DNA from: a virus
Lineage: Duplodnaviria > Heunggongvirae > Uroviricota > Caudoviricetes
DNA length: 57,580 nucleotides
Direction: 5' to 3' (one strand)
Virus record (IMG/VR): IMGVR_UViG_2529293084_000006
Of the stretch, positions 5,317 to 57,580 are shown piece by piece (positions within the stretch are counted from its first letter, which is position 1; every line of letters starts with the position of its first letter). Under the pieces are notes generated by a model. The model was not told the DNA's origin. It ran no database searches and saw only the letters and a program-made list of their open reading frames with translations. Made by a program: the position numbers and the translations under genes.

Positions 5317-5334
5317 TAACAGATTAATTTTTCA

Positions 5335-7170: not shown

Positions 7171-7345
7171 GTGTGCGTTTCTCCTGCTCTATCCTGTTTG
7201 CCTGACTGACCAGCAAGGGAATTTCACTGATCGGCATATTCAGCAATTCGAAAGGATTAATGCGCCAGTAGCTGGCGCAGTCAAAGAAGCGATCAGTGAG
7301 GTATTCAGCCGTCAGGCCTGGAGGAAAAAACCAGCCACAAGCCAC
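7157..7345 (-). CDS. Tail assembly chaperone -1 frameshift extension
   Basis: 62-aa ORF in the -1 frame relative to 7312..7581, overlapping its 3' end; the classical G/GT arrangement. Confidence 0.5.
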   Translation of the reverse strand: MACGWFFPPGLTAEYLTDRFFDCASYWRINPFELLNMPISEIPLLVSQANRIEQEKRTHGGI

Positions 7346-7581
7346 GCCGCTGCATTCAGGTCTGCCGGAGACATCTGGTCGACAGAGCTTTGCGGCACTT
7401 TCGCCAGCCGCACAATGTATTTCGACACCACATGCGCCAGAAGTCTGACTGACTCATCCTGATTCATCTGGTAGGGATACCCCAGCTCGCGGACATCCTT
7501 CCCGGTGGGTTCATCAAACTCCAGTACGGAGAGTGTCTCGCCATGAGCAGTAATCGGTTTCTTTAACTCAAGCTCTTTCAT
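7312..7581 (-). CDS. Tail assembly chaperone (short form)
   Basis: 89-aa ORF between tail tube and tape measure; ends ...AAWLVAGFFLQA with a slippery heptamer in the overlap with the next ORF. Confidence 0.6.
   Translation of the reverse strand: MKELELKKPITAHGETLSVLEFDEPTGKDVRELGYPYQMNQDESVRLLAHVVSKYIVRLAKVPQSSVDQMSPADLNAAAWLVAGFFLQA
7324..7330 (-). other. Candidate -1 programmed frameshift slippery heptamer T_TTT_TTC
   Basis: Zero-frame codons GGT TTT TTC (..AGFF..) in the overlap; -1 slip gives ..FFPPGLTAEY.., the frame of the 62-aa ORF. Confidence 0.5.
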
Positions 7582-7937
7582 TACTGGTAATCCCCTTCTT
7601 CACCGTGGAACTCAAGATCAACCGTGCCTTCTTCGGCATTATGGTTCGCTTCGCCGTGCAGCCAGGCAGACGACAGTACATAGACCTGACCGTTCGCCAG
7701 CTCGGCAGTGATGGTCATCTCATCAGACGAGGTGATTTTGCTTACCGGAAAATTCTTCGGCACCTTGAAGGTCCCTTTGACATAAGGCGCACGGTGAGTT
7801 TCCTTGCGGTCCACTGAACCGTCCAGGCCGATGATGTCATCGTTAACCGTTTTGTTCATGGGCACCTCAATGCCGCCGGTCAGCGATAGCTGCTGACCGT
7901 CAATTTTGAAATAACAGGTTCCCCCGATACGGGCCAT
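7581..7937 (-). CDS. Tail tube protein
   Basis: 118-aa ORF immediately downstream of the sheath gene; size and position match the tube gene at 37784..38149. Confidence 0.7.
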   Translation of the reverse strand: MARIGGTCYFKIDGQQLSLTGGIEVPMNKTVNDDIIGLDGSVDRKETHRAPYVKGTFKVPKNFPVSKITSSDEMTITAELANGQVYVLSSAWLHGEANHNAEEGTVDLEFHGEEGDYQ

Positions 7938-9433: not shown

Positions 9434-9587
9434 CGGTGTTCACCTTTTTATTCACGCGCCGGATATCACCCGCTGCTTCACGGCGCAGCCAGTAGTTGTT
9501 CTCGTCAACATTTCGCCCTTCGGCGGGCAAAAGGTCGCCGCGGGCAGGGTCAGGCACTGACCGCCCTTTAACAGGTTTGACAAACAT
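9417..9587 (-). CDS. Small conserved phage protein, homologous to the 81-aa gp38-like ORF at 36034..36279
   Basis: 56-aa ORF below the track cutoff (MFVKPVKGRSVPDPARGDLLPAEG...); resembles MKTIFIKPAPGRLIRDPDTMRPLAQEG at 36034; RBS GAGGA upstream; coordinates approximate. Confidence 0.4.
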   Translation of the reverse strand: MFVKPVKGRSVPDPARGDLLPAEGRNVDENNYWLRREAAGDIRRVNKKVNTDDDKL

Positions 9588-9595
9588 GAGGATCC

Positions 9596-10156
9596 TCAGG
9601 AAGGAAGGGTTATTTCGGTGTGATGTTCGATATCGCCGTCAGGCCCGTTACCGGGCTCGAGATAATCAACATCAATCGCCAGCGTTTGCAGTTCATCCAG
9701 ACTGTTCAGATCATCCTGCTGGCGGGTATCGTCTTCAGTCAGCTCGCTGATGACCGAAAAATCGAACTGATAAATCAGCTCATGACGATTCAGATCCAGC
9801 AGCGTGCCGCCGTCATAGGTAATCGGGTTACCGCACGCTTCCGGGTTCCAGCCCAGCAAGGCCTTAAAGAGCATCTGCCGGACATCGTCCACCACATCAT
9901 ACGAAGCAAACTGACCGAGCTCATCACGCCCGTTACTCAGTATGACAACCACGGAGAAGCCCTCTTTCAGCTCCTGCCAGTAGTCGGTCTGGCTTTTGTT
10001 TTCTCCCGGAGAGTCATCACCCGGTACCACATACGCCGCCGGGAGTCTCAGCTTTCCGACCTCCGGCAGATTTTTGAACTGTGCCGCGCCTGCCACCCGG
10101 TTTTCAAAATACGGGCAGCGGGCACGCAGCGCAGCAATAACAGGCGTCAGTTTCAT
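9596..10156 (-). CDS. Conserved phage protein upstream of the sheath gene (Mu gp37-like position)
   Basis: 186-aa ORF in the same position as 35473..36033 in the Mu-like element. Confidence 0.4.
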   Translation of the reverse strand: MKLTPVIAALRARCPYFENRVAGAAQFKNLPEVGKLRLPAAYVVPGDDSPGENKSQTDYWQELKEGFSVVVILSNGRDELGQFASYDVVDDVRQMLFKALLGWNPEACGNPITYDGGTLLDLNRHELIYQFDFSVISELTEDDTRQQDDLNSLDELQTLAIDVDYLEPGNGPDGDIEHHTEITLPS

Positions 10157-10659
10157 CTGCGTCGTCGCTCAGGCTTCAGTGATTTACGTAATTCTCGCGC
10201 CAGAAAATAGCGTGTCCAGCTGCGGTTCTTTTCAAGCGTTTCCACCATAAAGTTATTACGTGGAGCCAGCCGCCAGCCGCTGCCACCGGATGCACCACGA
10301 TGATGACTACGACGACGTTTTGCTCCTCCCCGGACACCAAAAAACAGAAACGCCGGATAGAAGTCACCAGAGATCATCCGGTTCCCCTTCCCGTTGCGCT
10401 GGTTAGGGGCAATGCGTGTCATAAAACCGGCTCGCTTTTTACTGGCTCTCGGCACCATGTAACCAATCGAACGAGCCAGGCGTCCGGTCTGATAACCGGG
10501 GTTTTCACCCGGTGCCGACCGCGCACGGCGCATCACCAGCCGACGGGCATCACGCATATGACGCTGCCCAATCGTGACAAACGCCCGCCGGACACGGGCG
10601 CGGTTAAAGCGCATCTCGGCGGGCTGCTGAACATCAACGTGAAAAAAGGGAGTCGCCAT
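10153..10659 (-). CDS. Arg-rich phage head/tail joining protein (resembles HK97 gp10 family)
   Basis: 168-aa basic ORF between head-tail adaptor and tail genes; family assignment is from memory. Confidence 0.35.
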   Translation of the reverse strand: MATPFFHVDVQQPAEMRFNRARVRRAFVTIGQRHMRDARRLVMRRARSAPGENPGYQTGRLARSIGYMVPRASKKRAGFMTRIAPNQRNGKGNRMISGDFYPAFLFFGVRGGAKRRRSHHRGASGGSGWRLAPRNNFMVETLEKNRSWTRYFLARELRKSLKPERRRR

Positions 10660-11044
10660 TGCTGCCTCCGTGACTCTGCGTAAATTCGCCCAGTTCCGTA
10701 CACTCCAGCAGCAGAAAGCGCCGCGCCCCGTTCAGATCGCGCTGACGTTTCACCCGGTACACACTGTCATCACAGACCACCTCATAATCAGCAGTGATCC
10801 CGCGGCGGTAGCGAATGGTGATGTAATGGGTGATGGCGTCCCCGGTCTGCGCGGTTTCCTGCCAGGTGGTGGCACTGGTCTGGATAACCTTCGCCCATGC
10901 CCGGAACGCAACCGGGTATTGAGGCTCCACGCCAAAGTTATCCGCGGGCATATCCACCCGCTGGCGGATCAGGACGCGTTTATTCAGTTCGCCGGGGTCC
11001 GGCAGTATGTAGGTTGCGCTGGTCTGCGCCTGACGAATTTTCAT
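10634..11044 (-). CDS. Head-tail adaptor / head closure protein
   Basis: 136-aa ORF downstream of the connector gene in an HK97-type head module. Confidence 0.5.
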   Translation of the reverse strand: MKIRQAQTSATYILPDPGELNKRVLIRQRVDMPADNFGVEPQYPVAFRAWAKVIQTSATTWQETAQTGDAITHYITIRYRRGITADYEVVCDDSVYRVKRQRDLNGARRFLLLECTELGEFTQSHGGSNGDSLFSR

Positions 11045-11409
11045 AGTGGTATAAGGCGATAAGGAGCAACCAACCAGTTAAAACTCATTGGCAACTCCAT
11101 TTTCTCAACGTCTGTAACCGTTGAGCGGTTTTCGTAGAAATGGCTGACAAGTAGCAGAAGTGCCAGCTTCACATCATCAGATATCACAAGCCCATCAGGA
11201 TCATCCGCAGGCCTGTCATCTGCGGTTGCATACAACTTACGGTTAAGGAAGTTTTCCGTACGACTCTGAGCGGCCTTACCAAGCAGTTCAAGCAACTCAT
11301 CTTCATCAGAGAAATCATCATCCAGACGGAGCTGAAGCTTAATCTCTTCCATTTTTAACAGCATAAAACCTCCTGTGCCCGCCAGAACGCGGGCACAAAA
11401 AAACCGCAT
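11041..11409 (-). CDS. Head-tail connector protein (gp6-like)
   Basis: 122-aa acidic ORF immediately downstream of the major capsid gene. Confidence 0.55.
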   Translation of the reverse strand: MRFFCARVLAGTGGFMLLKMEEIKLQLRLDDDFSDEDELLELLGKAAQSRTENFLNRKLYATADDRPADDPDGLVISDDVKLALLLLVSHFYENRSTVTDVEKMELPMSFNWLVAPYRLIPL

Positions 11410-11442
11410 TACGCGGCGTGCTGTATTACGTAAAAAGACTAA

Positions 11443-12672
11443 TCAACCACCAACGCTACCTTTCCCCACCAGCGCTTTAATGGCAGAGGTGTCTTCCAGG
11501 ATACAGTCAAAACGATGGAAGGCCAGAAAACCGGTCTGATCATATTCCGCGTAACGCTCAACCAGACGTTTAAGAATCATGTATCGCACACGACGGATAA
11601 TGAAGCGATCAAAGTCACCACAGAACATGCATTTTTTACCCGCCCCGATATCATCAATTTCCTGATCAATGACATACGGTACATTCAACACTGAAGCAGG
11701 TGCCACACCAACAATATCCGGCAACCATAAAGGGCGTCCCTGACCGTCTTCCATCTCACTGATCAGTTTCAGCGTATTATCGTTAAACGCCAGGCGGAAT
11801 TTCGGTCCGCGACGATATGCAGGATCAATGCTGTGTTTCAGAGCCAGAATTTCCTGCCACTTCACCGTATTTGCCGCGGCAGTCTGTGTTGTGCCGGTCA
11901 CAGATGCGACCAGCCCTTTGGGTTGTTTAGGCGTACCAGCACCAGTTCCCTGAATCAGATAACGGGCTTCACCACGACCAATACGTTCAGCAATGCGACG
12001 GGCAAGATAAGCTTCCATATCGATCGCACTGTCCTGCAGCAACTCATTAGACACACGAATTATTTTCGATGTCATTTTGAGCGCCCCAAGGCTTCCCATA
12101 CCGAAATCGGTGTCTTCTTCACCGGCTTCTTCATTTTCGCCCAGCAGAACACCAACTTCGGAAGTACCATCAGCTGTTGCCCACTCCATAGTGCGACCGT
12201 CAGAAGTGGTAAGAATCTGCGCCACACTGGCGATGCCACCGTAGGATTTCATCTTCTCAACAACTTTCGCCAGGAATGTTTCTGGTACGGTATATCCGCC
12301 CTTTTCATCCTGAGCTACGCCCTGGGCACGAAGTTCACGCAACGCCTTTCGTTCTTCTGATGTCAGCTCACTGGCACCGTGACGCATCCACTTATCAAAA
12401 ACCTGAGCTCGTTTCTCATCCTGTTGTGGATTGTTTTCCGGATCAAGATTCTGACGCTGCTCTTCCTCATTGCTTTCAATGTACGCCTGATCCTGACGAC
12501 GCAGTTCTTCTTCGCGTGCAATTCGTTCATCAAGCGCTTCCAGTTCGGATTTTGCTTTGTTCCACTCAGTGCGCTGCTCTTCCGTCCATGCGTTATCACC
12601 AATTTTTTCATTCAGGGCGCGCATGTCAGTTGCGATAGTATTACGTTTCTGTTTCAGTTCATGCAGTTTCAT
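11443..12672 (-). CDS. Major capsid protein, HK97 family
   Basis: 409-aa ORF with an N-terminal charged coiled-coil delta-domain-like region followed by a capsid-sized body; follows the prohead protease gene. Confidence 0.8.
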   Translation of the reverse strand: MKLHELKQKRNTIATDMRALNEKIGDNAWTEEQRTEWNKAKSELEALDERIAREEELRRQDQAYIESNEEEQRQNLDPENNPQQDEKRAQVFDKWMRHGASELTSEERKALRELRAQGVAQDEKGGYTVPETFLAKVVEKMKSYGGIASVAQILTTSDGRTMEWATADGTSEVGVLLGENEEAGEEDTDFGMGSLGALKMTSKIIRVSNELLQDSAIDMEAYLARRIAERIGRGEARYLIQGTGAGTPKQPKGLVASVTGTTQTAAANTVKWQEILALKHSIDPAYRRGPKFRLAFNDNTLKLISEMEDGQGRPLWLPDIVGVAPASVLNVPYVIDQEIDDIGAGKKCMFCGDFDRFIIRRVRYMILKRLVERYAEYDQTGFLAFHRFDCILEDTSAIKALVGKGSVGG

Positions 12673-12682
12673 GATGTTTCCT

Positions 12683-13285
12683 TTACGCGTTAAGAAGGGT
12701 CAGGACGCGTTCACGCGCCATACGTTGATTAATGGCTTTCTGTAGCGCGCCGCTGTTGCGCGCCTCCTGCCATGCTTTCATGGAGCGAACAGCCGAGTCA
12801 GCCTCCTGATAGGCAGGATATGTCACAGGACTGACATCCAGCAGACGGGAAAAGCGGGTTATCTCGCGAATAACAACCCCGTCCTCATCCTGATACCACT
12901 CCTCGCCGTCACGGGCGACACGGAAAGCAAAAGATGACTGGTTAATATCTCCACGTTGCATCGGGGCCAGCACCAGATCACGAATGGTCTGTGTCTCCGG
13001 AGCCTGGATGTCATAGCGCAATCCGCGCTCATCAACTGAAAGATTCAGCGTGCCTGCTGCACTACGCCCAAGAATAAAATTAGGATCGTGGTTAAACAGT
13101 GCGCGTACATCATCACCAAGCACATCGTCAAAAGCGCCGGGCCGGATGATTTCGCGGAATGAACCAAATATCAGCTCAGAACGACAGTCAAACACCGATC
13201 CATAACCGATAATGTGCGCAGGGTTATCGTCATGCCGCTCAGCACGCACCTCACCGCTGTAACAACGGATTTCACGGTCATTCAT
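12683..13285 (-). CDS. Prohead protease, HK97 family
   Basis: ORF 12683..13342 trimmed to the ATG at 13285 (MNDREIR..., RBS GAGGGA upstream); sits between portal and major capsid. Confidence 0.7.
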   Translation of the reverse strand: MNDREIRCYSGEVRAERHDDNPAHIIGYGSVFDCRSELIFGSFREIIRPGAFDDVLGDDVRALFNHDPNFILGRSAAGTLNLSVDERGLRYDIQAPETQTIRDLVLAPMQRGDINQSSFAFRVARDGEEWYQDEDGVVIREITRFSRLLDVSPVTYPAYQEADSAVRSMKAWQEARNSGALQKAINQRMARERVLTLLNA

Positions 13286-13646
13286 TGGTTTTTCCCTCAT
13301 CATTTTTTGGGGGCTTAAAATCTCCTGCCGGGTTAGCAGCATTCACGCTTACCAGCATCTCATCCAGCCCTTCAACCGGATTCATATCCTCGAATGCGCG
13401 GGCTTCATTACGGCTCATCCATCCATCGGTAATAGCGAAGTGATAGAATTGCGCGCGCTCCTGCGGAGTTCCGCGTAAAAGCCCCGTCAGATTGAACCTA
13501 ACGTAATACCCGGCGGCTAACTCAGCGCGGGTAAACAAGCGACGGTTAAGCTCCTGCTCCCAGTTCGTTACCCACGGCATCATCGTGTAGCGGACAAACT
13601 GAATCGCCTGCGCAGAAATATTGGAGAATGTAACCAGGTGAATCAT
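13278..13646 (-). pseudogene. Portal protein C-terminal fragment (gene interrupted by the Mu-like insertion)
   Basis: 122-aa ORF; the frame ..VTFSNISAQ.. continues the N-terminal fragment ending ..INDLEKATF at 52920, so the two pieces reconstruct a ~415-aa HK97-type portal. Confidence 0.75.
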
Positions 13647-24572: not shown

Positions 24573-24643
24573 TATTCCGCAAAGCCTGCCGCCTCTCCTT
24601 CACCGTTACGCTGACTCAGAGAACATCATGAGACAGCGTAACA

Positions 24644-32431: not shown

Positions 32432-32523
32432 CCTGAATTTAACGGGCTTTAAAATCTGCGTGAAGCGCCTTTGTATTTTTCCCCTGAAAGCACTTCCTGA
32501 AATCCCGCAAAACCCGCCCTGAA
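32432..32523 (+). promoter_or_regulatory. Four direct CCTGAA(A) repeats upstream of gene I (candidate late promoter / activator sites)
   Basis: CCTGAA at 32432, 32483, 32496 and 32518 in the 176-bp G-I intergenic region, preceded by a hairpin at 32376..32400. Confidence 0.3.
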
Positions 32524-32546
32524 AATTCCCGGCTTATGCTGCCGGA

Positions 32547-44320: not shown

Positions 44321-45402
44321 TGCCTTATCAGCCCTTACCACTGGCGCAACTGATCACACAGACACAACAGGATATCAGCCAGCGCCTGCCCGGTTCGCAG
44401 CCGGGCGTGAATGAAACCACCCTGAATGCCATTGCGTATGCACTGGCGGGTCTGTCAGCACAGGAGCATGAACATCTGGCCTGGATCTCCCGGCAGATAA
44501 TTCCGACAGAAGCTGATGAAGCCGAACTCCTGAAACACTGCGCATTCTGGGGTGTCATCCGTAAACCGGCTTCCCGCGCTGACGGACCGGTACAACTGAT
44601 GCTGACCACGGATGCAGGGATCACGGAAGGCGTACTCCTTCAGCGAAGCGATGGTGTTGTGTACCGCATCACCGGCTCTGCGACCGGAAAAGCCGGAACA
44701 CTGAATGTTAATGTGGAGGCGGAAAGTGCGGGGCGCGCCGGAAATACCCCGACCGGAACCCGCCTGTCCTTTATCACGCCACAGGCGGGCATCAACCAGA
44801 CAGCCACGGTTACCGGCACGGGACTCACCGGTGGTGCGGATGTGGAAACGGTGCCGGAGTTGCTGTCCAGGCTGGTATTCCGGGTACAGAACCCGCCATC
44901 AGGGGGAACACAGTATGATTTTGAACGCTGGGCACGGGAAGTACCGGGCGTGACGCGGGCATGGTGTAAGCCTGAATGGCCTGAGGCGGGTAGTGTTGGT
45001 GTGACTTTTGTTCAGGATAATAACCCTGACATTTTCCCCGGAGAAGGTGATGTGAAGCGGGTGGCGGATTATATCCGCAGTCATGATGATCCGGCGACGG
45101 GCCAGCCCGTTGGTCAGCCACTTGGGCCGACAATCAGCGTGTTTAAGCTGACCAATAAGCCGGTGGCGTTTGAGATCAGGATTGTACCCAAAACGCCGGA
45201 AAATCAGGCTGCCGTAAAACAGGCATTAACGGACCTGCTTTATAACGAATCGCGGCCGGGTGGACTTGTATTGCCTTCATCATTCTGGCGGGCTGTTGCA
45301 GGGGTGAAAGGACTGGAGGATTTTGAAGTTCGCAGTCCGCTGAAGTCCGTGATGGCCGGAGATACAGAGTTGCTGACCGTGGGGGAAATCACATGGCTGT
45401 AA
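44317..45402 (+). CDS. Baseplate J-like protein (Mu gp47-like)
   Basis: 361 aa; homolog of 868..1926. Confidence 0.7.
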   Translation: MMPYQPLPLAQLITQTQQDISQRLPGSQPGVNETTLNAIAYALAGLSAQEHEHLAWISRQIIPTEADEAELLKHCAFWGVIRKPASRADGPVQLMLTTDAGITEGVLLQRSDGVVYRITGSATGKAGTLNVNVEAESAGRAGNTPTGTRLSFITPQAGINQTATVTGTGLTGGADVETVPELLSRLVFRVQNPPSGGTQYDFERWAREVPGVTRAWCKPEWPEAGSVGVTFVQDNNPDIFPGEGDVKRVADYIRSHDDPATGQPVGQPLGPTISVFKLTNKPVAFEIRIVPKTPENQAAVKQALTDLLYNESRPGGLVLPSSFWRAVAGVKGLEDFEVRSPLKSVMAGDTELLTVGEITWL

Positions 45403-45953
45403 CCCTGACCCCGCATCAGCGCGCCCTGTTGCAGTTGCTGCCTGACGGGCTGGCATGGGATAAGCGGCCGTCATCCGTTCTTGCGGCTTTGTGCCTGGGC
45501 CTCAGTCATTCCACGGAGCGTGTTTCCTGGACCGGTAACCAGATGCTGGCAGAACGTTTTCCTGATTCATCCCGTCTGCTGCTGGAAGACTGGGAGCGTT
45601 ATCTGGGGTTACCGGAATGTGATATGACCGGCGCAACCATTCAGGAACGTCAGCGTTATGCAGGGAATAAATACCGGATGAAACCCTCTCTTAACCGTGA
45701 ATTTTATATCCGGTTTGCGGCAGAGTTTGGTTATGAAATAGATATTCAGCCATCACCGGATTCACAGTGGGTCAGTATTGTCACGATAAACAGTGAAACC
45801 GGCTACCGGAATATGAATGTGCTGGATGATATTCTCACCCCGCTGCGTATTTATGAGGGTGGTGCGCTGGAATGTATTCTGAACCGTTATAAGCCTGCAT
45901 GGCAGACGTTTATTTACGTGTATGCAAACAGTCACAAAGAGGAGAATATTTAA
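45393..45953 (+). CDS. Tail protein, Mu gp48-like
   Basis: 186 aa; homolog of 293..877. Confidence 0.6.
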   Translation: MAVTLTPHQRALLQLLPDGLAWDKRPSSVLAALCLGLSHSTERVSWTGNQMLAERFPDSSRLLLEDWERYLGLPECDMTGATIQERQRYAGNKYRMKPSLNREFYIRFAAEFGYEIDIQPSPDSQWVSIVTINSETGYRNMNVLDDILTPLRIYEGGALECILNRYKPAWQTFIYVYANSHKEENI

Positions 45954-46864
45954 TGTTCCATGTTGATAATAATTCCGGCGTGGCGAATATGCCTGAACTG
46001 GCTCCGGCGCAGAGTAATACCACCACCTGGTTTACCGAAGGTGACGGACAAAAAGGTATCAGCTGGATTGGTCAGGACTGGCTGAATATTCTCCAGGCCG
46101 AACTGCTGAATATTCTGGCTGAAGCCAGTATTCAGCCGGATAAGGCGCAGTTAAACCAGCTTACGCTGTCCATTAAAGCCATTATCGCTGCGAATGCCTT
46201 TTCCCGGAAAAACAACCTGAAAGAAATTGCTGATGCCGGTGCGGAAGCCCAGCGTCTGGCCCGTGGTTATCTTGGTCTGGGGACGCTTGCCACAAAAAAC
46301 AGTCTTGGTCCCGCTGACGTTAATGCCCTGGCGAAGGATCAGAACCTTGCCGACCTGGAGAATGCGGAAACCGCCCGTAATAATCTGGATGTTTACAGCA
46401 GGAGCGAAGGTGATAACCGTTACCTGCGCAGGGACCAGAATGGCGCGGATATCCAGGACAAAGGAACCTTTATCGATAACCTCGGTTTACGGGAAACGGT
46501 AAATAAGGCTGCTGATGCCCTGCCATCGGCTGGAACCGCCGTGGCAGCAAACAGACTCGCCACCCCAAGAAATATTAATGGTGTTCCTTTTGACGGAACG
46601 CTGGATATCAACATCACGTCAGGAATGACGCAGTCAACCGCAGATGGCCGGTATGTACAGAATGTTCAGCTTGGAGCACAGAGCTATCATTCACCCGGAG
46701 GCAATGAAATGTCATGGAATTACAGCGCACCTTCCGGTTGTATGCTTTCCGGTATTAACGTGCAGGAAACCGGCTCCCGGTCTGCGGACAATATCGGTGG
46801 GGTCTATTATCGCCCGGTTCAGATTTATATTAATAATACCTGGAGAACGGTAAGTTCAGTGTAA
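45953..46864 (+). CDS. Tail fibre protein (constant N-terminal part plus variable C-terminus in the current orientation)
   Basis: Track ORF 45899..46864 trimmed to ATG 45953 (AAGAGGAG RBS); the coding sequence crosses the left gix site at 46470. Confidence 0.7.
   Translation: MFHVDNNSGVANMPELAPAQSNTTTWFTEGDGQKGISWIGQDWLNILQAELLNILAEASIQPDKAQLNQLTLSIKAIIAANAFSRKNNLKEIADAGAEAQRLARGYLGLGTLATKNSLGPADVNALAKDQNLADLENAETARNNLDVYSRSEGDNRYLRRDQNGADIQDKGTFIDNLGLRETVNKAADALPSAGTAVAANRLATPRNINGVPFDGTLDINITSGMTQSTADGRYVQNVQLGAQSYHSPGGNEMSWNYSAPSGCMLSGINVQETGSRSADNIGGVYYRPVQIYINNTWRTVSSV
46470..46495 (+). promoter_or_regulatory. Left gix-like recombination site TTATCGATAACCTCGGTTTACGGGAA
   Basis: About 22/26 identity to the Mu gix sequence as I recall it; central TC dinucleotide. 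Confidence 0.65.
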
Positions 46865-46898
46865 ACCACAGAAAAGGGTGCTGAATGCACCCTCTGAA

Positions 46899-47420
46899 TT
46901 ATTCCGGTTTTTCCGGCCAGGGAATCGCCTGGTAATGCCCCTCACTGGCAATATCATTAAAGTGCATTTCTTTAAGCTGTCGGATATACGCCATCCAGCG
47001 CGTCAGCTGTAATTTATTTTCATCGCTAATCATGTCCAGTTTTAATTCTGTTTTCCAGTCATCCACGGTTTCGTTGGCTTCCTGGAGCAGCGATGAGCGA
47101 CGCTTTTCAGCAACCGTCTTCCAGTTTACCGGCACCTTTGATATCAGGCCATCAGAAAACTGCCAGTTACCGTCAATATTCACACCTTCCGGCAGTTCGT
47201 CCACTTCAACAACAGTAAAACCTGCCGGATATAAAGCAGAGACATCTTCAGCAACAGAGCAGATAATACCCGTTACAGGCGAAATACAGAGTTTGTATTT
47301 CTTTGTAAAAAGCGGGATAGATTCATAAAAATCCCTTCCGTCCTCACTCTGGAAATACTGAACATCCTCACCATAGGGTTTGTCTTTCGGGTAATATCGT
47401 TTGACATTAATCAGTTGCAT
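46899..47420 (-). CDS. Tail fibre assembly protein (chaperone for the alternative fibre)
   Basis: Track ORF 46899..47471 trimmed to ATG 47420 (MQLINVKRYYP...); inside the invertible segment, downstream of the alternative fibre C-terminus on the same strand. Confidence 0.65.
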   Translation of the reverse strand: MQLINVKRYYPKDKPYGEDVQYFQSEDGRDFYESIPLFTKKYKLCISPVTGIICSVAEDVSALYPAGFTVVEVDELPEGVNIDGNWQFSDGLISKVPVNWKTVAEKRRSSLLQEANETVDDWKTELKLDMISDENKLQLTRWMAYIRQLKEMHFNDIASEGHYQAIPWPEKPE

Positions 47421-47541
47421 AAACATCACCATGTAAATCAATGATAAAAACAGGAATAATACTATCGCCATATACAGGCAATGCTTGTCTGAAATAACGC
47501 ATATTTCAGATGCTGGCTGCTGTGTGCTATGCCCCCGTTAA

Positions 47542-47895
47542 TTAAATACTTGCAGCGGATACCCAATGCCCATTAATACAATATTGTATCTGTCTGTAAT
47601 AAACACGGTCATCACCACCACGCATTTCCCAGTCTCCGTCAGTCTTAAAACCGGTAATCACATTTCCTGATGACAGGGAGTAATTATATTCCAGTCCGCC
47701 GCTTAATGCCTGCGCTCCCAGTCTTACCCCTGTAACATAACGCTGATTGGCCGTTGATTCCGGCATTCCTGACGTAATGTTTATATCCTGCGTGCCGTCA
47801 AAGGCGACACCATTGATTCTGCGGGCATTTGCCAGCCTGCTTGCTGCAACAGCCGTACCGTTTGATGGCAGGGCATTCGCGGCCCTGTTTACCGT
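47542..47895 (-). CDS. Alternative tail-fibre C-terminal coding segment, promoter-less in this orientation
   Basis: Reverse-strand frame homologous to the + strand fibre C-terminus (..NGTAVAA.RLA..R.INGV.FDGT.DINITSGM..); the track ORF 47542..47766 is its distal part; 5' limit approximate. Confidence 0.55.
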   Translation of the reverse strand, partial: TVNRAANALPSNGTAVAASRLANARRINGVAFDGTQDINITSGMPESTANQRYVTGVRLGAQALSGGLEYNYSLSSGNVITGFKTDGDWEMRGGDDRVYYRQIQYCINGHWVSAASI

Positions 47896-47921
47896 ATCCC
47901 GTAAACCGAGGTTTCAGGGAT
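47896..47921 (-). promoter_or_regulatory. Right gix-like recombination site, inverted relative to the left site
   Basis: Reverse complement ATCCCTGAAACCTCGGTTTACGGGAT shares the core with the left site. Confidence 0.65.
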
Positions 47922-47975
47922 GCCGTATATCTACTTTAAAAGGCTTTTCCACCTCTTTTTAAGGAAGGTAAATAC

Positions 47976-48536
47976 ATGCTGATTGGCTATATACGCGTAT
48001 CAACAAATGACCAGAACACCGGTTTACAAAGAAATGCGCTGGAATGTGCAGGATGTGAGCAGATTTTTGAAGACAAAATGAGTGGTAAAACGACACAGCG
48101 GCCGGGACTGAAGCGGGCACTGAAGAAACTAAAACCCGGTGACACGCTGATGGTCTGGAAACTGGACAGGCTGGGGCGCAGTATGCGCCACCTTGTTGCG
48201 CTGACAGATGAATTACAGCAACAGGGGATAAATTTTCGTAGTCTTACTGACAACATTGATACGTCAACCCCCATGGGGCGCTTCTTTTTTCACATAATGG
48301 GTGCGCTGGCAGAAATGGAGCGTGAATTAATTGTCGAACGGACACGGGCTGGTCTTGCAGCTGCCCGTGAAAGGGGACGAACCGGCGGCAGACCCCGCCG
48401 TCTCACGCAGGAACAATACGAGCAGGTCGGGCGTTTACTGGCCGGGGGTGTCAGTCGAAGACAGGTGGCACTTATTTTTGATATCGGTCTTTCAACCCTT
48501 TATCGTTATTATCCTGCGAGCGTTTCGGAAAAATAA
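47976..48536 (+). CDS. gin: Serine recombinase / DNA invertase (Gin/Hin/Pin/Cin family)
   Basis: 186 aa; N-terminal catalytic region (LIGYIRVSTNDQ, MVWKLDRLGRS) and C-terminal HTH; directly beside the invertible segment. Confidence 0.9.
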   Translation: MLIGYIRVSTNDQNTGLQRNALECAGCEQIFEDKMSGKTTQRPGLKRALKKLKPGDTLMVWKLDRLGRSMRHLVALTDELQQQGINFRSLTDNIDTSTPMGRFFFHIMGALAEMERELIVERTRAGLAAARERGRTGGRPRRLTQEQYEQVGRLLAGGVSRRQVALIFDIGLSTLYRYYPASVSEK

Positions 48537-48635
48537 GACGCTCTCTTTGTTGGGCCTTTACTGAATTAACGCAAAATGGCGTTTATCGGTCTGTGGATAT
48601 GATAATTCAGTTTATTCAGGAACAGGCTGATTATT

Positions 48636-50675
48636 ATGACGTCCAAATGGGTTCAACTATCATCAATGCCCGGAAACTTTACTGTTAAAGTTTCCGGTGG
48701 TACAGCGGCATTTCTTGAGGCTCCCTTTCCTCCGGCCGAAACAAAAGGAGGAATGACATTTGCTGACTGTCTCATCAGTTTTAATACACGGGATTGCCTG
48801 TGGGTAAGGCCAGTATCCGGTGATCCGAGTGTGGAAATTACCGGAGCGGGTATTGGTGCGGTCATTCCGTTAAGTGCTGATGTTGCCGGTACTGCTGAAC
48901 CGTCAGACTGGGATAATGCTGAAACACATACCCGTCCGTCAGGAAATGAAACTGCTTCCAGCTCCCCTTCCTGGTATTACGTGGTGGTTCTTGCTGGTCA
49001 GTCAAACGGTATGGCTTACGGTGAAGGTCTGCCACTGCCGGAGACATATGACCGCCCCGAACCGCGTATTATGCAGTTAGCCCGTCGCAGTACAGTCACG
49101 CCGGGAGGTAAAGCCTGTCAGTATAACGACATCATTCTGGCCGACCACTGTCTGCATGATGTGCAGGATATGAGTGGAAAAAATCACCCGAAAGCGGATG
49201 TGGCTAAAGGGCAATATGGCACCGTGGGTCAGGGGCTTCACATTGCCAAAAAACTGCTGCCGTTTATTCCGGCAGATGCGGGGATTCTGCTGGTTCCCTG
49301 CTGCCGTGGTGGTTCTGCATTCACGGCGGGTGCTGACGGCACGTACAGTGACAGCACGGGTGCTTCAGAGGACTCAGCCCGCTGGGGTGTGGATAAGCCG
49401 CTGTATAAGGACTTAATCAGCCGGACAAAAGCGGCACTGGCGAAGAACCCGAAAAACCGCCTGCTTGCTGTGGTGTGGATGCAGGGCGAGTTTGATATTG
49501 ATGCGAAGCCGACGGAGCATTCTGCGCTGTTTCTGGCGATGGTGGAAAAATTCCGCGCAGACCTGGCTGAACAGGCGGAACAGTGTACCGGTGGCAGTGC
49601 TGCTGGCGTTCCGTGGATTTGTGGCGATACCACGTATTTCTGGAAACAGAAAAATGAACCAGCATACCAGGCAATCTATGGCGGCTACAAAAACAAAACA
49701 GATAAAAACATTCATTTCGTTCCATTAATGACAGATGAAAATGGCGTGAATGTACCCACCAACAATCCGGCAGAAGACCCGGATATTGAATCCATTGGTT
49801 ATTACGGCTCAACGTGGCGTAACAGTGCCGCTACCTGGACATCTGCGGACCGGGCCAGCCATTTCAGTGCCTGGGCGCGCCGGGGTATTATTTCTGACCG
49901 TCTGGCCACGGCTGTTCTGACTCATGCAGGGCGAACCACAGTAAAAGCCGATGTTCCATCTTCTGAAACTGAAGCACCAGTGCCGTCACCTTCAGAAACT
50001 GAAGCAGTAACCACAACACTGCTGTCTTACCGTGTCAGTGAGTCAGAAGGAAATCTGAAAGCCCAGGGCTGGGAGCCGGCTGGCGGTAAAGCTGAAATTA
50101 TCAGTGATGCAGGAGGCACAGGTGGTAAGGCAATGAAACTGACCAAGGAAACAGGTAAATCATCCTGGTATCTGGATCATGATGCCGGTACTGGTGCTGA
50201 ACTGCTGAAAAATGGTGGTTTAATCAGTTGTCGTTTTAAAGTACCTGGCGACCTGGTGGCAAACCAGTATGTCATGGCGCTGTACTGGCCGGTTTCCTCT
50301 CTGCCGCAGGGTGTCACCCTGACAGGGGATGCAGGGAATAATCTGCTGGCATCGTTCTACATCCAGACAGACGCAAAAGACCTGAATGTGATGTACCACA
50401 ATGCAAAAGTGGCAACAAATAACCAGAAACTGGGAACCTTTGGTGCATTTGATAATGAATGGCATACGCTGGCCTTCCGTTTTGCAGGAAATAACAGCCT
50501 TCAGGTTATTCCGGTTATTGATGGTCAGGATGGTGCCGCGTTTACCCTGACGCAGTCACCAGTAGGAACTTTCCCGGTGGACAAACTCCGCGTAACGGAT
50601 ATCACCAAAAATGCAACTTACCCGGTGCTGATTGACAGCATTGTGGTGGAAGTGAAAAAAGCGGTAACAGAATAA
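48636..50675 (+). CDS. SGNH-hydrolase family esterase, likely a sialate O-acetylesterase of the prophage NanS-p type
   Basis: 679 aa; GQSNG block (VVLAGQSNGMAYGE) typical of SGNH hydrolases; size and multidomain layout resemble prophage esterases of enterohaemorrhagic E. coli; family assignment is from motifs only. Confidence 0.6.
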   Translation: MTSKWVQLSSMPGNFTVKVSGGTAAFLEAPFPPAETKGGMTFADCLISFNTRDCLWVRPVSGDPSVEITGAGIGAVIPLSADVAGTAEPSDWDNAETHTRPSGNETASSSPSWYYVVVLAGQSNGMAYGEGLPLPETYDRPEPRIMQLARRSTVTPGGKACQYNDIILADHCLHDVQDMSGKNHPKADVAKGQYGTVGQGLHIAKKLLPFIPADAGILLVPCCRGGSAFTAGADGTYSDSTGASEDSARWGVDKPLYKDLISRTKAALAKNPKNRLLAVVWMQGEFDIDAKPTEHSALFLAMVEKFRADLAEQAEQCTGGSAAGVPWICGDTTYFWKQKNEPAYQAIYGGYKNKTDKNIHFVPLMTDENGVNVPTNNPAEDPDIESIGYYGSTWRNSAATWTSADRASHFSAWARRGIISDRLATAVLTHAGRTTVKADVPSSETEAPVPSPSETEAVTTTLLSYRVSESEGNLKAQGWEPAGGKAEIISDAGGTGGKAMKLTKETGKSSWYLDHDAGTGAELLKNGGLISCRFKVPGDLVANQYVMALYWPVSSLPQGVTLTGDAGNNLLASFYIQTDAKDLNVMYHNAKVATNNQKLGTFGAFDNEWHTLAFRFAGNNSLQVIPVIDGQDGAAFTLTQSPVGTFPVDKLRVTDITKNATYPVLIDSIVVEVKKAVTE

Positions 50676-50821
50676 AAAAATCCCGCCGGTCATGATATGG
50701 CTGGCGGGAGCTACCTAACCCATAAAGGAAAATAAAAATACTCCCGAAGGAGTGGTTATCAGTCGCTTCGATGTTTTTACCCGATAACGAATTATGTAGT
50801 CAATATCAAAGGTAAGGTTAT

Positions 50822-51004
50822 ATGACATTCGTTCATACAATGCTGCTTTATTTCTGCGCTGTGGTCAGTGCGTTATATCTGGTGAGCGGCGGTTATAAGG
50901 TCATCAGAAATTATATTCGCCGTAAAATTGATGATGCGGCAGCTGAAAAACTCAGTAAAACAGCACAGGCACCGTCATCCCCAAACGACCCGACCCCGCT
51001 CTGA
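50822..51004 (+). CDS. Small membrane protein, unknown function
   Basis: 60 aa; one N-terminal TM helix then a charged tail. Confidence 0.35.
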   Translation: MTFVHTMLLYFCAVVSALYLVSGGYKVIRNYIRRKIDDAAAEKLSKTAQAPSSPNDPTPL

Positions 51005-51039
51005 TAACGGGGCAATATACCTGCAAAAGGAGAATATTC

Positions 51040-51285
51040 ATGCCAGAGATTAAAGGCACGGTTACTGAAGAGCTTGTCAAACAGGCACTTTATTCTGAAG
51101 AAGTGAACCGCGTGCTGAAGGCGCAGGTTCGCAAGGATTTTGAGGCACAAATCGACGCATATGTTGATGAAGTGCTGGCCCGAATGGTTGGCCGTTCTCC
51201 GGCTGAAAACAGCACGGAAAATGATCCTCAACCCGTAGAGCAACCAGAGCCGGTTCAGCCCGGAACTGACGGTACTATGATGTAA
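51040..51285 (+). CDS. Small acidic protein, unknown function
   Basis: 81 aa; acidic, Pro/Glu-rich C-terminus; GGAG RBS. Confidence 0.35.
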   Translation: MPEIKGTVTEELVKQALYSEEVNRVLKAQVRKDFEAQIDAYVDEVLARMVGRSPAENSTENDPQPVEQPEPVQPGTDGTMM

Positions 51286-51836
51286 CAATACCGACCGGCA
51301 GGTTTCCCTGCCGGGTGAGTTTGTTAATGCACGTTTTGTGTATTTTCCCTCCTGGGAGAACAGGCAGGACATATCAGCATCCTGAAACAGGAAGCATTTT
51401 TGGGTTTGTATGTCTTGCCATTTTGAGATCGAGAACGGCGATAGATGAGCTGTAAGGGAGTCTTACAGGCAGGGCAAACAGGCTCTTTCATCCATGATAA
51501 AGATCTCCTTTTTATGCATCTCTGCTTTACAGGAGACTGGGGAATATCATAGGATACGCCACGAGCTCGAAGTAAAGCATTGATGCAAAATTGTCTAAAT
51601 CGGCCCAGAATAGTTCGCGCTATCTGGGTCGCTCTTTATGTATGTAGTATCCCATTGATTTGAAACATACTACATATACGCGCGATCCTACCTTCACTAT
51701 ATAAAAAGTCAATAAAATGATCATTTTATGATCGTTTTCACCACCTAACTCTTCGTTTTCTTTAAGTAAATAATCACCTACCTGAATCATTGTTGATGAC
51801 TTTTCAATCTATTTGTTGTATCAATTAAACAAATCG

Positions 51837-52840: not shown

Positions 52841-52924
52841 TAGTATCAAATAAGTTGCGTATCGGCGTTTTTCAGCAGTATCAAATGAAATGCAAATCGG
52901 TATCAAAAAAATCGCCGCGCTATA
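52841..52924 (+). repeat. Mu-like right end with three inverted transposase-binding repeats (R1-R3-like)
   Basis: GTATCAAA at 52841, 52878 and 52899; the last 30 bp align in inverse orientation to the left end (TTGATACC at the same offset). The terminus reads ..GCGCTATA, not the canonical ..CA. Confidence 0.55.
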
Positions 52925-53804
52925 AGAAGGTGGCTTTTTCGAGGTCATTAATCATGTGCGCAGGAATATTGAAAATACCGGCAATCATTGAACGGTTCAG
53001 TTTCATCATGTCAATGATCTGAGCGTCAACTGGCGACACAGTCAGTGCCTTGTAATCCAGATCGGCTGGCAGCAGCATGGTTTTGTTTTCCTGGCTGCGT
53101 AACGCCTGCGATGCCTTCTGCCACTGATCTTTAAGCCAGCCCCAGCTGTCCTTATTGAGTCCGCTTTTAACGGATACTATCCCCGCCGGACGGGCATTAC
53201 CGCTGAAGAAGCTTTCTGTGTATTTCTGACCGCTCATCCCCATGCCTATTGTTTCGGCATGTTGCATAATCGGACTCAGCCCCATCTTCTGATTATTACC
53301 CAGCGCACGGATGTGGATCATATCGTCGGGGCTGATCGCAAACGCCCCATATTCGTTGTACAAACCGTAGGTATATCGGCCACCAGTATTCATCAGCGTC
53401 GTTTCCCACGGCATACAGCAATCCAGGGATATGACTTCACCGCGACGATTACGTTTCACCCAGGTATACCCATTCCCCCAGCCAAGGATGTGACGTTGCT
53501 TCAGTTCGCGCCATTTGTAACTGGTTTGCCAGGTATTGGGCTCATCATGAACCAGATAAAACGCCGGATGATCGCGTGCGGGCTCAACCTTCCCATTGTG
53601 CCTGCGCATAACATGCAACGGCATCTGGGCAAGGCTGGAAGACAGGACATAGATACAGGAATACACCGCAGCCAGTTTCATCGCAGTTTCAGGACTGACA
53701 TAAACGTCTGTCCGGAACAGCCCATCAGTATCAACGGCATCCCCGGTTATCGGGGTGGAAGGATTCTCCAGTGATTTACTTCTGAACAGAGCATCAAGCA
53801 GCAC
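52920..53804 (-). pseudogene. Portal protein N-terminal fragment (gene interrupted by the Mu-like insertion)
   Basis: 294-aa ORF ending ..HMINDLEKATF then L-stop read from the Mu right end; continues in frame with 13278..13646. Confidence 0.75.
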
Positions 53805-53955
53805 GCGTCCCCCTTCTGGCCATAGCCAGTGCGCCCACCAGCAGTAAACCGCCGGACAGCATCAGAGCCGGAGCCATACCAAACTGCAGGTAAAACCCGC
53901 ACGTAAGCAGGCCAAAACCAGCCAGCCCGATAACATCAGCAATTAGTGATTTCAT
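53794..53955 (-). CDS. Small membrane protein between terminase and portal
   Basis: 53-aa ORF below the track cutoff ([26 protein letters not shown]...); ATG overlaps the terminase stop (ATGA). Confidence 0.3.
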
Positions 53956-55685
53956 AGAATTAAGAGAGCATCGTCCGGATCAAGAGATGAGAGGAAATCG
54001 TCGGGTTCTTTGAGCATTGCCCGACCGATCGCCATAATCAGCGCAACCGCACCATCGATTTTGTTTTCCGCCTGCTCCTTGACAGGCTTCACCACATCAT
54101 CGTTACCCGGAATGGTTTTGCCGACCACGTTGCCGATACACCAGGTCATGATGGGATTGCCGTCATGATGAAAGCGCCCCGATTCAATCGCCGCTTCCAG
54201 CTCTTTCATCGGATCGGACATGTTGGTGTAGTTCTGAATGATGGTGATGGGGTTCAGGTCTTCATCAGCAAGGTCATGCGACAGCCCGGTCGCCCCGAAG
54301 GGGTCGATGGGTGACTCACTGACCGGGCTGATTTTGTTCGCCGCTTTGGCCTCCTCGAGGATGTACCGATAATCCACCTCCGCACCAGCGGTAACAGTCA
54401 GAACGCCCATTTCCACCCATTTCTGAAAGCGTTCGGCTGTCCGGCGATCTTCATTTTTCTCGACGCTGTACACCGTGTCATACGGTACCCAGAAACGCGG
54501 GGCCACACTGTAGTAATGCGTTTTACCGTCAATCTCGCGGGTATAAAGTCGCGCCATGCTGTTCATATCCAGCTTACGCGCCAGGTCAAAGGCCAGAATG
54601 CACGGCTGCCCCTCGAACTGCTCAAGGGTCAGTGATTTATCCTCGCAGCTCTGCCAGCTCACCAGGTTGAAATACGCCGAACGCGCCGACACCCAGATAT
54701 TGAGGTGTTTTGTTTTAAAGACGTTTGCCAGACGGGCGTTATTTTTCGCACGCTGCTGCTGACTTAACAAAAATTCGCGATAAACCGACACGCCAATATT
54801 TGGATTGGCTTTTTCCAGCACCTGCGGGTCGATCCAGTCGTCACCTTCATCAACGGTATAGATGATCCCGAACAGTTCATCGTTGGGTACCGAACCGTTG
54901 AGCATCTCGATAACTTCCCGCCGCTTGTCGTAGCACGGCCCCTCAATGTTGTACCCGGCGGTGGTGATGGCCCACATCAGTGGCTGACGTCGCGCCCCCA
55001 TCCCGGTAAGCATCGTGGTATAAAGCGCATCGGTGGCGTGCTCGTGATATTCATCCACCACCGCACAGTGGGGTGATGAACCATCACCAGGGTTACCGAT
55101 CAGCGGTTCAAACCGCGCACCATCCTCCGGACGGTTCATGTTTGAGGCGTTAACCTCAATCCCGAACGCTTCCGTCAGCATGGGTGTGCGTTTACACATC
55201 AGTCGTGCCGGACGAAAGACTTCCCATGCCTGTTTCTCCGTCGTGGCACCGGAATACACTTCCGCGCCGAACTCGTTATCACAGGCAAAACAATACAGGG
55301 CGACACCGGCAGAGATTGCCGATTTGCCGTTCTTACGGGGGATTTCGGTATACACCTCCCGGAAGCGGCGCAGCCGGGAGCCTTTATTGACCCAGCCAAA
55401 CGCGCAGCAGATCACAAAGAGCTGCCACGGCTCCAGCGTGATGGGCATCCGTTTGAATGCCCACTCACCCTTGGTGTGCGGCAACAGCTGAATAAATTTC
55501 GCGGCCCGTTCAGCCAGGTCCTTGTCGAAGCGGTAACGAAACGACTTACTTTTTTCCGCCATCAGGTCATCAAGATGGCGCTGGCAGGCCTGAATCACAA
55601 ACTGGCAGGCCACAATCTTTCCGCGCACGACATCACGGGCATACTGATTTGCAGCATTTACGTTGGGGTAAGATTTCCGGCTCAT
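53952..55685 (-). CDS. Terminase large subunit
   Basis: 577 aa between small terminase and portal, with the size and placement expected of a large terminase. Confidence 0.8.
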
Positions 55686-56185
55686 GATTCGATAATTTTC
55701 AGAAACGGGTTAGTGGCTTTCTTCTGCCCCGCCAGGCCAATCAGACGCTGGCGGCTGCTGGGGTCGAGTCCGAGCATTGCCCCCGTACTGCTCATCTCGG
55801 ACTCCTGTTCTTTTTTGGCGGTCAGCTCCGGATTTTTGACCATGCCGCCCATTGCACCGGTGATGGTGTTGCCCTGTCTGGCAATATTTTTCACGGCACG
55901 TCGCCAGAACTCATAGGCCACGCACCACCGCTCAAGCACCGCGAGGTCAGTCACGCACAGCAGGCCCTGACCGCAGAGTTCTTTGGTTGTCAGTTGCCAC
56001 ATGATCGTGGCGAGAGGGAGATCTTCTTCAGCGAACCACTCCGGTGGCTCAACACCTTTGATGGGCGTAAAAACAGGTTCATCTTTGTTCAGGGCTCGCT
56101 TGCCGGGGGTTCCGGCCAGCGCCTTGCGCGCCGTTGGCTTGGGGCGACGCCCGGAACGCCCCGCCGTTCCAGCCATATGCGGCAC
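55682..56185 (-). CDS. Terminase small subunit
   Basis: 167 aa immediately upstream of the large subunit; basic N-terminus. Confidence 0.65.
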
Positions 56186-56301
56186 TCCTGGTTAAATTTC
56201 ATTTTTCGCGGGTATAAAAAAACGATGGGGCGGGCAGTCCGGAAGACGTCAGGTCACAGGGATTTGACCCGCCCCTCCCCTCTGGCAGTGGGAACTGGTT
56301 C

Positions 56302-56652
56302 TTACTTCAGCCGTTCACGGGCCGTCTTCGCCTTATGACACGGCCAGCACAGGCTCTGCAGATTGCTGTCGGCATCAGTGCCGCCATGCGCTTTAGGGAT
56401 GATGTGGTCAACGGTTTTCGCCTCGCGCACCACACCGGCACGCAAACACAACTGACACAGGCCTTTGTCACGCTTTAGTACACGCCCCCGGATAACATCC
56501 CATTTCGAACCATAACCGCGCTGGTGTCGGGACTGGCCTGGCTTGTATTGCTTCCAGCCCTCGCTTTTGTGGCTTTCGCAATAACCTGACGGGTCAGTCG
56601 TGGTATGGCGGCAGCCGCGAACTCGGCAGGCTTTTGGGGTTCGTGGTGGCAT
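56302..56652 (-). CDS. HNH endonuclease (packaging-associated)
   Basis: Track ORF 56302..56751 trimmed to ATG 56652 (MPPRTPKACRV...); Cys/His-rich (CRxxGC, HIIPKAHGG, CWPCH); upstream of the small terminase as in HK97-like phages. Confidence 0.7.
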   Translation of the reverse strand: MPPRTPKACRVRGCRHTTTDPSGYCESHKSEGWKQYKPGQSRHQRGYGSKWDVIRGRVLKRDKGLCQLCLRAGVVREAKTVDHIIPKAHGGTDADSNLQSLCWPCHKAKTARERLK

Positions 56653-57177
56653 ATGTACTCCAATGAAGAAGCTACCGACATAGCCTCCTCCATTCGTCGT
56701 GAAACTATTTTCATCTACCCAGTAATGAATTCTTTGAAGAGTTGTAATCAATACAACTCGCTAATGGAGAGGCTTGTCTCACACGTGAGACAAGCTTCCT
56801 GTTTGATTTACTGGACACTATAGAAGGACAGAATGCCTTCCTCACTCGAATCACATCAATTAAGGAGGTTCAACATGTTTCATTCCACAAGTCATCAGGC
56901 TGTAATTATGGCAGCATCAGTTTGTGCCACAGACCTTTTCCGCTTCACTTTGAGCCTGATTCATTTCTACCTGACCGGCTCGCCTCTATCTTTTTAATCC
57001 CCGCTTTATCCAAATTGCATTGCCAGAATGCCGACAACAGACTGACATTCAAATCCTGACTACCTCCAATAGTCTGACCGTACACCTATATAGTTTTAAT
57101 TTTCATCAATCCATTTAACTATCGTTTAATTGTTGTCACATAGGATTCTGCCGTTTTTAACAATGCAGGATAATAAG

Positions 57178-57471
57178 ATGAAAAAAATGTTATTTTCTGC
57201 CGCTCTGGCAATGCTTATTACAGGATGTGCTCAACAGACGTTTACTGTTGGAAACAAACCGACAGCAGTAACACCAAAGGAAACCATCACCCATCATTTC
57301 TTCGTTTCGGGAATTGGACAGGAGAAAACTGTTGATGCAGCCAAAATTTGTGGCGGCGCAGAAAATGTGGTTAAAACAGAAACCCAGCAAACATTCGTAA
57401 ATGGATTGCTCGGTTTTATTACTTTAGGCATTTATACTCCGCTGGAAGCGCGGGTGTATTGCTCACAATAA
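57178..57471 (+). CDS. bor: Bor lipoprotein (lambda bor homolog)
   Basis: Track ORF 57130..57471 trimmed to ATG 57178; MKKMLFSAALAMLITGCAQQTFTV... with lipobox LITGC; near-identical to lambda Bor as I recall it; opposite strand to the lysis genes, as in lambda. Confidence 0.8.
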   Translation: MKKMLFSAALAMLITGCAQQTFTVGNKPTAVTPKETITHHFFVSGIGQEKTVDAAKICGGAENVVKTETQQTFVNGLLGFITLGIYTPLEARVYCSQ

Positions 57472-57502
57472 TTGCATGAGTTGCCCATCGATATGGGCAG
57501 CG

Positions 57503-57580
57503 CTATCTGCACTGCTCATTAATATACTTCTGGGTTCCTTCCAGTTGTTTTTGCATAGTGATCAGCCTCTCTCTGAGGGT
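57503..57580 (-). CDS. Rz: Rz-like i-spanin, C-terminal 25 codons (gene continues beyond the right edge)
   Basis: Reverse-strand translation ..TLRERLITMQKQLEGTQKYINEQCR-stop matches the lambda Rz C-terminus as I recall it. Confidence 0.7.
   Translation of the reverse strand, partial: TLRERLITMQKQLEGTQKYINEQCR

Follow-up and report, generated by a model that had tools for sequence, protein, structure and literature searches.

A Gin-type invertible tail fibre switch with a single assembly chaperone gene in an Sp18-type Mu-like prophage of Escherichia coli

Gin-type fibre switches are textbook systems, and in their accepted layout there is one chaperone per fibre tip. The G segment of phage Mu is 3 kb long and carries two tail fibre assembly (Tfa) genes, one per orientation (S, U / U', S'). 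In the P1 C/Cin, e14-type P/Pin and Fels-2 H/G systems a serine invertase likewise lies beside a segment that exchanges fibre C-termini, and the P1 C, e14-type P and Fels-2 segments have two convergent Tfa genes between the tips. Here we describe a switch of this kind in the window, by which we mean the whole 57,580-nt stretch of viral DNA that was analysed (IMG/VR record IMGVR_UViG_2529293084_000006). The window holds an Sp18-type Mu-like prophage of Shiga toxin-producing E. coli (STEC) at about 13.6-52.9 kb, and its invertible segment is 1.4 kb long with one Tfa gene, which converges on the expressed fibre gene (Table 1). We think that this Tfa is probably, though by no means certainly, transcribed independently, with one chaperone serving the fibre in both orientations of a Gin-type host-range switch.

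The locus has a serine invertase, inverted 26-bp sites with matching cores, and both orientations among genomes, as a Gin-type inversion system does. The two sites lie inside the fibre gene (gixL) and just before gin (gixR), and their TC and GA cores are complementary; the sites span 1,452 bp from outer end to outer end, and 1,426 bp separate the crossover dinucleotides. The 17-mer TCCCGTAAACCGAGGTT common to gixL and gixR occurs in exactly two copies in the window, inverted to each other. When up to three mismatches were allowed, 0.09 matches were expected by chance, and none of 100 shuffles gave two or more. Over 181 aa the invertase and Mu Gin were 75% identical, and the N-terminal serine motif (YIRVSTNDQ) is conserved. 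The position of the crossover within the homologous fibre N-terminus is that of Mu, where gin is also to the right of the segment and is followed by com and mom. From Gin homology, inversion is assumed to depend on Fis and an enhancer; over the first 240 nt of gin, 16 to 26 of the 30 positions in each 30-nt stretch matched Mu gin, and a crude Fis-consensus pattern hit neither the window nor Mu.

Inversion of 46484-47907 in silico carried the constant N-terminal part of the fibre (Sc) in frame into the alternative C-terminus (Sv'), and both fusions were open, with 303 aa for the Sc fusion to the currently expressed C-terminus (Sv) and 298 aa for Sc-Sv'. We then counted orientations between complete E. 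coli genomes by searching with the native or the flipped sequence and accepting a single collinear match with at least 80% coverage. The window orientation was found in 183 genomes and the flipped orientation in 27, so that Sv' is the expressed fibre tip in 27 complete genomes. Two of these 27 matched all 2,701 nt of the in-silico flip at 100.0% identity. In the flipped genomes RefSeq annotates the fibre and Tfa genes as co-oriented, followed by a truncated fibre fragment in the opposite direction and then by the recombinase. Relatives in IMG/VR gave a similar picture: when 80 loci were classified with degenerate DNA patterns (L020, L021, L024, L027, L041 and L069 being checked by listing their open reading frames, ORFs), 16 were in the window orientation and 4 were flipped. 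The exact flipped sequence in complete genomes and the presence of both orientations among genomes indicate that inversion happens, and that it happens at the predicted core. An earlier note, made from the letters of the window, had described a Gin-type invertible switch with two inverted gix-like sites bracketing about 1.45 kb. Every element was located where that note had placed it, and the two orientations expected of such a switch are present in public complete genomes, exact flipped matches included.

A hidden Markov model (HMM) was built from seven Tfa proteins, and the entire 57.6-kb window was searched with it in six frames, taking all 1,105 stop-to-stop ORFs that reach 30 aa. The model matched a single ORF (E 1e-77), the next best standing at E 2.3, in agreement with the claim of the earlier note that there is only one assembly chaperone gene. 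The protein is a member of the PF02413 tail fibre assembly family (67 bits, cut-off 22), homologous to Mu U (5YVQ_B, E 1e-15), and is a predicted chaperone. The distance of 34 bp from the fibre stop to the inverted chaperone gene, also given in that note, was confirmed as 46865-46898, the interval that separates the stop codons of the two genes. A hidden second chaperone, such as the short + strand ORF 3' of 46864 that in the earlier note would refute the claim, was rejected, as the HMM matched one ORF only and the + strand ORFs antisense to Tfa were not conserved; a 98-aa ORF of this kind was not conserved in the diverged relative L006. The one-Tfa-per-orientation feature of the Mu G and P1 C segments is thus missing here; neither the segment nor the rest of the window has a second Tfa. 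Two convergent Tfa genes each were found in Mu, SfMu, Fels-2 and the e14-like neighbouring prophage, which bears out the contrast with Mu-type segments and argues that the asymmetry of one versus two Tfa genes is real.

The layout with one Tfa is not confined to the window. It recurs in Sakai Sp18, in the diverged lineages L009, L006, L007 and L027, and at 26 IMG/VR loci. Scans of genome contigs with the Tfa gave at most one locus. It was found in a lineage about 93% identical over the region that has a different Sv', and in an 85%-identical O91:H21 lineage in which the Tfa coding DNA is only 66% identical. Three different types of Sv' cassette and spacer precede the same Tfa. As to its origin, no route of one deletion or one homologous inversion was found that leads from a Mu-like arrangement (Sv U> <U' Sv') to the one seen here (Sv> <Tfa <Sv').

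The fibre is shorter than that of Mu (303 versus 504 aa). In the alignment to Mu S its first ~190 residues correspond to residues 1-191 and its last ~70 to the receptor-binding tip, and Mu S residues ~190-430 have no counterpart. Sv and Sv' are 52% identical in protein sequence over the whole variable part, and a 179-nt inverted homology (75%) just inside the gix sites represents the related proximal parts of the Sv and Sv' regions. The ratio of non-synonymous to synonymous substitution rates (dN/dS) for Sv was 0.12 against L009 (synonymous divergence, dS, 0.93), 0.14 against L006, and 0.08 for L006 against L009 (binomial P 1e-12); Sv is under strong purifying selection and is functional. For Tfa dN/dS was 0.17 between lineages, and for Sc it was 0.28 against the L009 lineage. 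Both tips and Tfa are under purifying selection. We also noticed that the first ~50 codons of Sv and Sv' (window 46484-46656 and 47735-47907; L006, L009) are mosaic between lineages; for example, the expressed Sv' in L006 begins with the Sv-like ETVNKAADALPS. Such mosaicism is the pattern expected from gene conversion across the 179-nt inverted homology.

Which tip the lone Tfa partners can be judged from its relatives elsewhere. At 33 IMG/VR loci a Tfa gene whose product is 53-58% identical to the window Tfa is preceded on its own strand, 67-92 nt from its start, by the Sv-type tip motif SADN[IV]GGVYY, and ORF listing of two of these loci showed a fibre ending in an Sv-type tip with Tfa immediately next. 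Phage Rac-SA53 has the same tandem order, with an Sv-type tip and then Tfa. Among independent relatives, these contigs and Rac-SA53 come closest to both the Sv tip (62-66%) and Tfa (51-58%); in them tip and Tfa are in tandem on one strand, a few bases apart and without an invertase, whereas in the window the two are convergent. The Rac-SA53 tip is 66% identical to Sv and 35% to Sv', and Sv' is 60% identical to the Mu S tip; the N-domain of the window Tfa is 64% identical to that of Rac-SA53 Tfa and 36% to that of Mu U. In Mu, the variable N-domain of Tfa binds the fibre tip and the conserved C-terminal part drives trimerisation (PMC9608196). Because the Tfa family elsewhere stands directly 3' of Sv-type tips, the lone Tfa looks like the usual partner of the currently expressed Sv, even though it is antisense to Sv and lies behind Sv'.

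Derivatives that have lost gin and nearly all of Sv' have the order esterase gene, 304 nt, Tfa and convergent fibre gene, and share one deletion junction, which holds a relic of Sv' (...TAYYR). They are inserted at xdhA (CI5), hsdR (M18) and bcsA (S1-CAM-01-A). Between CI5 and M18 the Tfa gene differs by 21 synonymous changes and 14 non-synonymous ones, and its dN/dS of 0.16 (P 6.5e-7) equals that of the fibre gene. The two Tfa proteins share residues that distinguish them from gin+ relatives, suggesting that these changes probably arose after the deletion. The 304-nt region 5' of the locked Tfa diverged by 4.6%, versus 13-19% at synonymous sites (P 5e-6). In a lineage that went on moving, selection has thus preserved a Tfa gene that always lies antisense to the fibre operon.

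We propose the following working of the switch. The Gin homologue would recombine the inverted gix sites and invert 1,426 bp, fusing Sc either to Sv, the state of the window, or to Sv'. In the flipped state Tfa would be made by read-through from the late fibre operon, with transcription ending at the hairpin and its T-run; this would be the only state in which Tfa is co-transcribed in the fibre operon. In the window state a separate promoter would drive Tfa; it would lie in the spacer, which is the best candidate, or else upstream in the Sv' region. Interchangeable Sv' cassettes would plug in upstream of the shared Tfa. We infer both the autonomous transcription of Tfa and its action on both tips. 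A stronger form, 'one chaperone, many tips', in which a Tfa with its own promoter inside the segment folds the Sv encoded on the antisense strand and at least three unrelated Sv' cassettes, is a tentative suggestion to which we give somewhat less than even credence.

The spacer between the Sv' stop and the Tfa start shows several features of interest for this proposal. Three A/T-rich spacer types of unrelated sequence were found, of about 121, 80 and 50 nt (window 47421-47541; L012, L028 at 3861-4000), whereas ordinary tip-Tfa pairs are only 2-14 nt apart (2 nt in Mu). The window spacer is 83-86% identical to that of lineages in which the Tfa coding DNA is only 66% identical, its last ~65 nt being nearly identical by eye, and the spacer is retained in the gin-less derivatives. 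The hairpin between the fibre and Tfa genes is also present in L009. A perfect 8-bp inverted repeat, CTGAAATA-N5-TATTTCAG, lies in the spacer at 47479-47499 and has one mismatch in the diverged lineages. No spacer RNA element was found in Rfam at E up to 1, and the fold energy was ordinary (z = 0.05).

Several results weigh against an independently transcribed Tfa that serves both tips. Scans for sigma-70 promoters upstream of Tfa gave no consensus match in the window or in L009, and the Mu C-activator box (cATAAcCCc, derived from the four annotated late promoters of Mu) was absent at the expected late-promoter positions and from the spacer. The regions 5' of the lys and I homologues (window 24573-24643 and ~32500-32546) share the box CTGAwATyCCGCAAArCCyGCC, which is probably the late-activator site of this phage, differing from the Mu C box; it resembles the spacer only loosely and is a weak lead. 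Each of the three spacer types, unrelated as they are in sequence, would need its own promoter. The hairpin has no T-run on the + strand, and late transcription could therefore read antisense through Tfa in the window orientation. In the gin-less derivatives the deletion junction creates a near-consensus promoter facing Tfa (ATGATA-17-TATAAT); since the junction itself makes a good -10 hexamer, the locked lineage may not reflect expression in the gin+ phage. The putative specificity of Tfa for a tip is read from co-occurrence, and the orientation counts derive from consensus assemblies and not from reads of a single culture.

Of the other explanations, the likeliest, though still improbable, is that the Sv tip folds without any Tfa and that the single Tfa is for Sv' only and made only after inversion. 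This would suit the gene order, as Tfa is co-oriented only with Sv' and the terminator is on the strand of Tfa itself, and it would suit the failure to detect a promoter upstream of Tfa. It sits poorly with the 33 loci and Rac-SA53, in which Sv-type tips are directly followed by the same Tfa family, and with the resemblance of Sv' to the tip of Mu S, whose partner Mu U has an N-domain so distant from that of the window Tfa; moreover, lineages without Sv' and gin keep Tfa under purifying selection. The earlier note had likewise left the expressed orientation without a chaperone. The asymmetry that it saw in the gene layout is there, but a chaperone-less fibre, which it implied, is probably wrong, given that the Tfa family matches the tip and that selection acts on Tfa in the locked lineages.

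It is a little less likely again that a fibre in the Sv orientation borrows Tfa from another resident prophage. STEC hosts carry many tfa genes, the neighbouring prophage in the same region has two Tfa genes and a pinE switch of its own, and Montag and Henning in 1987 and Hashemolhosseini et al. in 1996 are said to have found the Tfa proteins of lambda, P2, Mu and the T-even phages partly interchangeable. Such borrowing would require the simultaneous induction of the late genes of other prophages, the phage family is also found in non-STEC strains (from mouse, spinach, seawater and human commensals), and the phage has, at a distance of 34 bp, a Tfa of its own from the matching family, which selection preserves in the locked lineages. 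Least likely of all, and in our view very improbable, is that the Sv orientation is non-productive, giving fibre-less or misfolded particles, whether as an on/off control of infectivity or as the decaying remnant of a two-chaperone system. The orientation commonest among the assemblies (183 vs 27) does lack a co-transcribed Tfa, which a rarely induced prophage could tolerate. Against this stand the strong purifying selection on Sv over a dS of ~0.9, the conservation of the layout across lineages with Tfa coding DNA only ~66% identical, and the arrival of Sv-locked phages at three different chromosomal sites in different strains.

Table 1. Coordinates of the switch, its flanking genes and its gin-less derivatives (window positions unless a locus label is given)
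Feature	Position	Strand	Remarks
Baseplate wedge gene, Mu gp48/YmfQ family	45393..45953	+	directly 5' of fibre gene; PF10076 E 2e-22; RefSeq annotation of identical prophage
Fibre gene	45953-46864	+	303-aa ORF
Sc, constant N-terminal part of the fibre, 177 codons	45953..46483	+	outside segment; homologous to Mu S residues 1-191 (PDB 5YVQ_A, E 1e-49)
gixL crossover site TTATCGATAACCTCGGTTTACGGGAA	46470..46495	.	core TC at 46482-46483; shares 23/26 positions with the Mu site at the annotated left boundary of the G segment
Sv, currently expressed receptor-binding C-terminus, 126 codons + stop	46484..46864	+	tip homologous to Mu S tip and P2-like H tips
G+C-rich hairpin, terminator-like, 9 pairs	46873..46895	-	between convergent fibre and Tfa genes; followed by TCTGTGGTTT; T-run on Tfa strand
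Tfa, sole tail fibre assembly chaperone gene (predicted), 173 aa	46899..47420	-	convergent with expressed fibre gene; PF02413 E 2e-18; phrog_136 E 3e-57
A/T-rich spacer, 121 nt, Sv' stop to Tfa start	47421..47541	-	candidate site of a putative orientation-independent Tfa promoter
Sv', alternative fibre C-terminus, no start codon of its own	47542..47907	-	joins Sc in frame after inversion
gixR crossover site ATCCCGTAAACCGAGGTTTCAGGGAT	47896..47921	.	core GA at 47908-47909; 19/26 identical to the Mu right G-segment boundary site
Gin/Cin/Pin-type serine DNA invertase, 186 aa	47976..48536	+	outside segment, reads away; PF00239 E 1e-51, PF02796 HTH, phrog_125
Gin-less switch derivatives	L020 3697-4554; L094 9198-10936; L095 7198-8936; L098 7698-9469		Tfa permanently convergent with fibre gene

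The prophage that carries the switch has homologues of Mu C, lys, I, N, P, com and mom, and its 2.7 kb at 45900-48600 are 100% identical to a prophage in E. coli O157:H7 ECP19-798 and other STEC strains. The family is present in more than 200 complete E. coli genomes, many of them STEC. The gene order was that of Sp18-type prophages (Sakai Sp18 and O157 ECP19-798), namely gp47, gp48, fibre, convergent Tfa, fibre fragment, invertase, esterase, com and mom. In Mu nothing lies between gin and com, whereas in the window an esterase module is inserted there: the stretch from gin to com/mom (48636-51100) encodes a protein of 679 aa that combines a SASA sialate-O-acetylesterase domain with DUF6645, and beyond it lie DUF1378 and DUF826 ORFs. 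Esterase modules of this NanS-p type occur in Stx/lambdoid phages, in their late regions. At ~51324-51790 on the - strand, between the DUF826 gene and com, RefSeq lists a frameshifted hypothetical ORF in the identical prophage of ECP19-798.

The Mu-like prophage interrupts another myovirus prophage, whose flanks are window 1-13631 and ~52900-57580, with capsid, portal, terminase and Mu N-/P-like baseplate genes on either side of the insertion. The junction of the two prophages was found in no complete genome of the collection. The interrupted prophage is intact in O157 FRIK944, where a pinE fibre switch of its own, carrying two Tfa genes, forms its end (L093 17239-20042), and this switch would fall just left of window base 1. 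Its Pin-type order is fibre, tfaE, tfa and fibre fragment.

Part of what we describe is already known, namely the Sp18 invertible region and its annotated genes. Sakai Sp18 (ECs_4989-ECs_4992) is the same element, with a 303-aa fibre, a convergent Tfa, a start-less fibre fragment, an invertase, a 679-aa esterase, com and mom; the window copy is inserted elsewhere, inside another prophage. The invertible host-specificity region of Sp18 was reported to have genes different from those of Mu (Asadulghani et al. 2009, PMC2669165). In the published literature, as far as it could be searched, we found no paper discussing the single chaperone of an Sp18-type switch. It is this single-chaperone variant that is unusual, and it refines a known mechanism. 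The anatomy of the switch is solid; that one chaperone is shared and independently transcribed is a testable hypothesis.

A widespread prophage family thus manages with one chaperone gene, and this gene is antisense to the tip that it most likely serves. If the chaperone is indeed shared, invertible segments could carry promoters of their own, and Tfa specificity could be looser than has been assumed. The 'many tips' form would be the first case of a Gin-type host-range switch whose chaperone is shared and independent of orientation, and would imply a Tfa specificity much looser than in the Mu model. Such looseness would be useful for engineering the host range of phages or tailocins with swapped tips, although the practical gain is modest. 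In Mu, moreover, Tfa remains attached to the fibre of the virion and has a part in recognising the host (PMC9608196), which suggests that the supply of chaperone could affect the host range of a mobile element of STEC.

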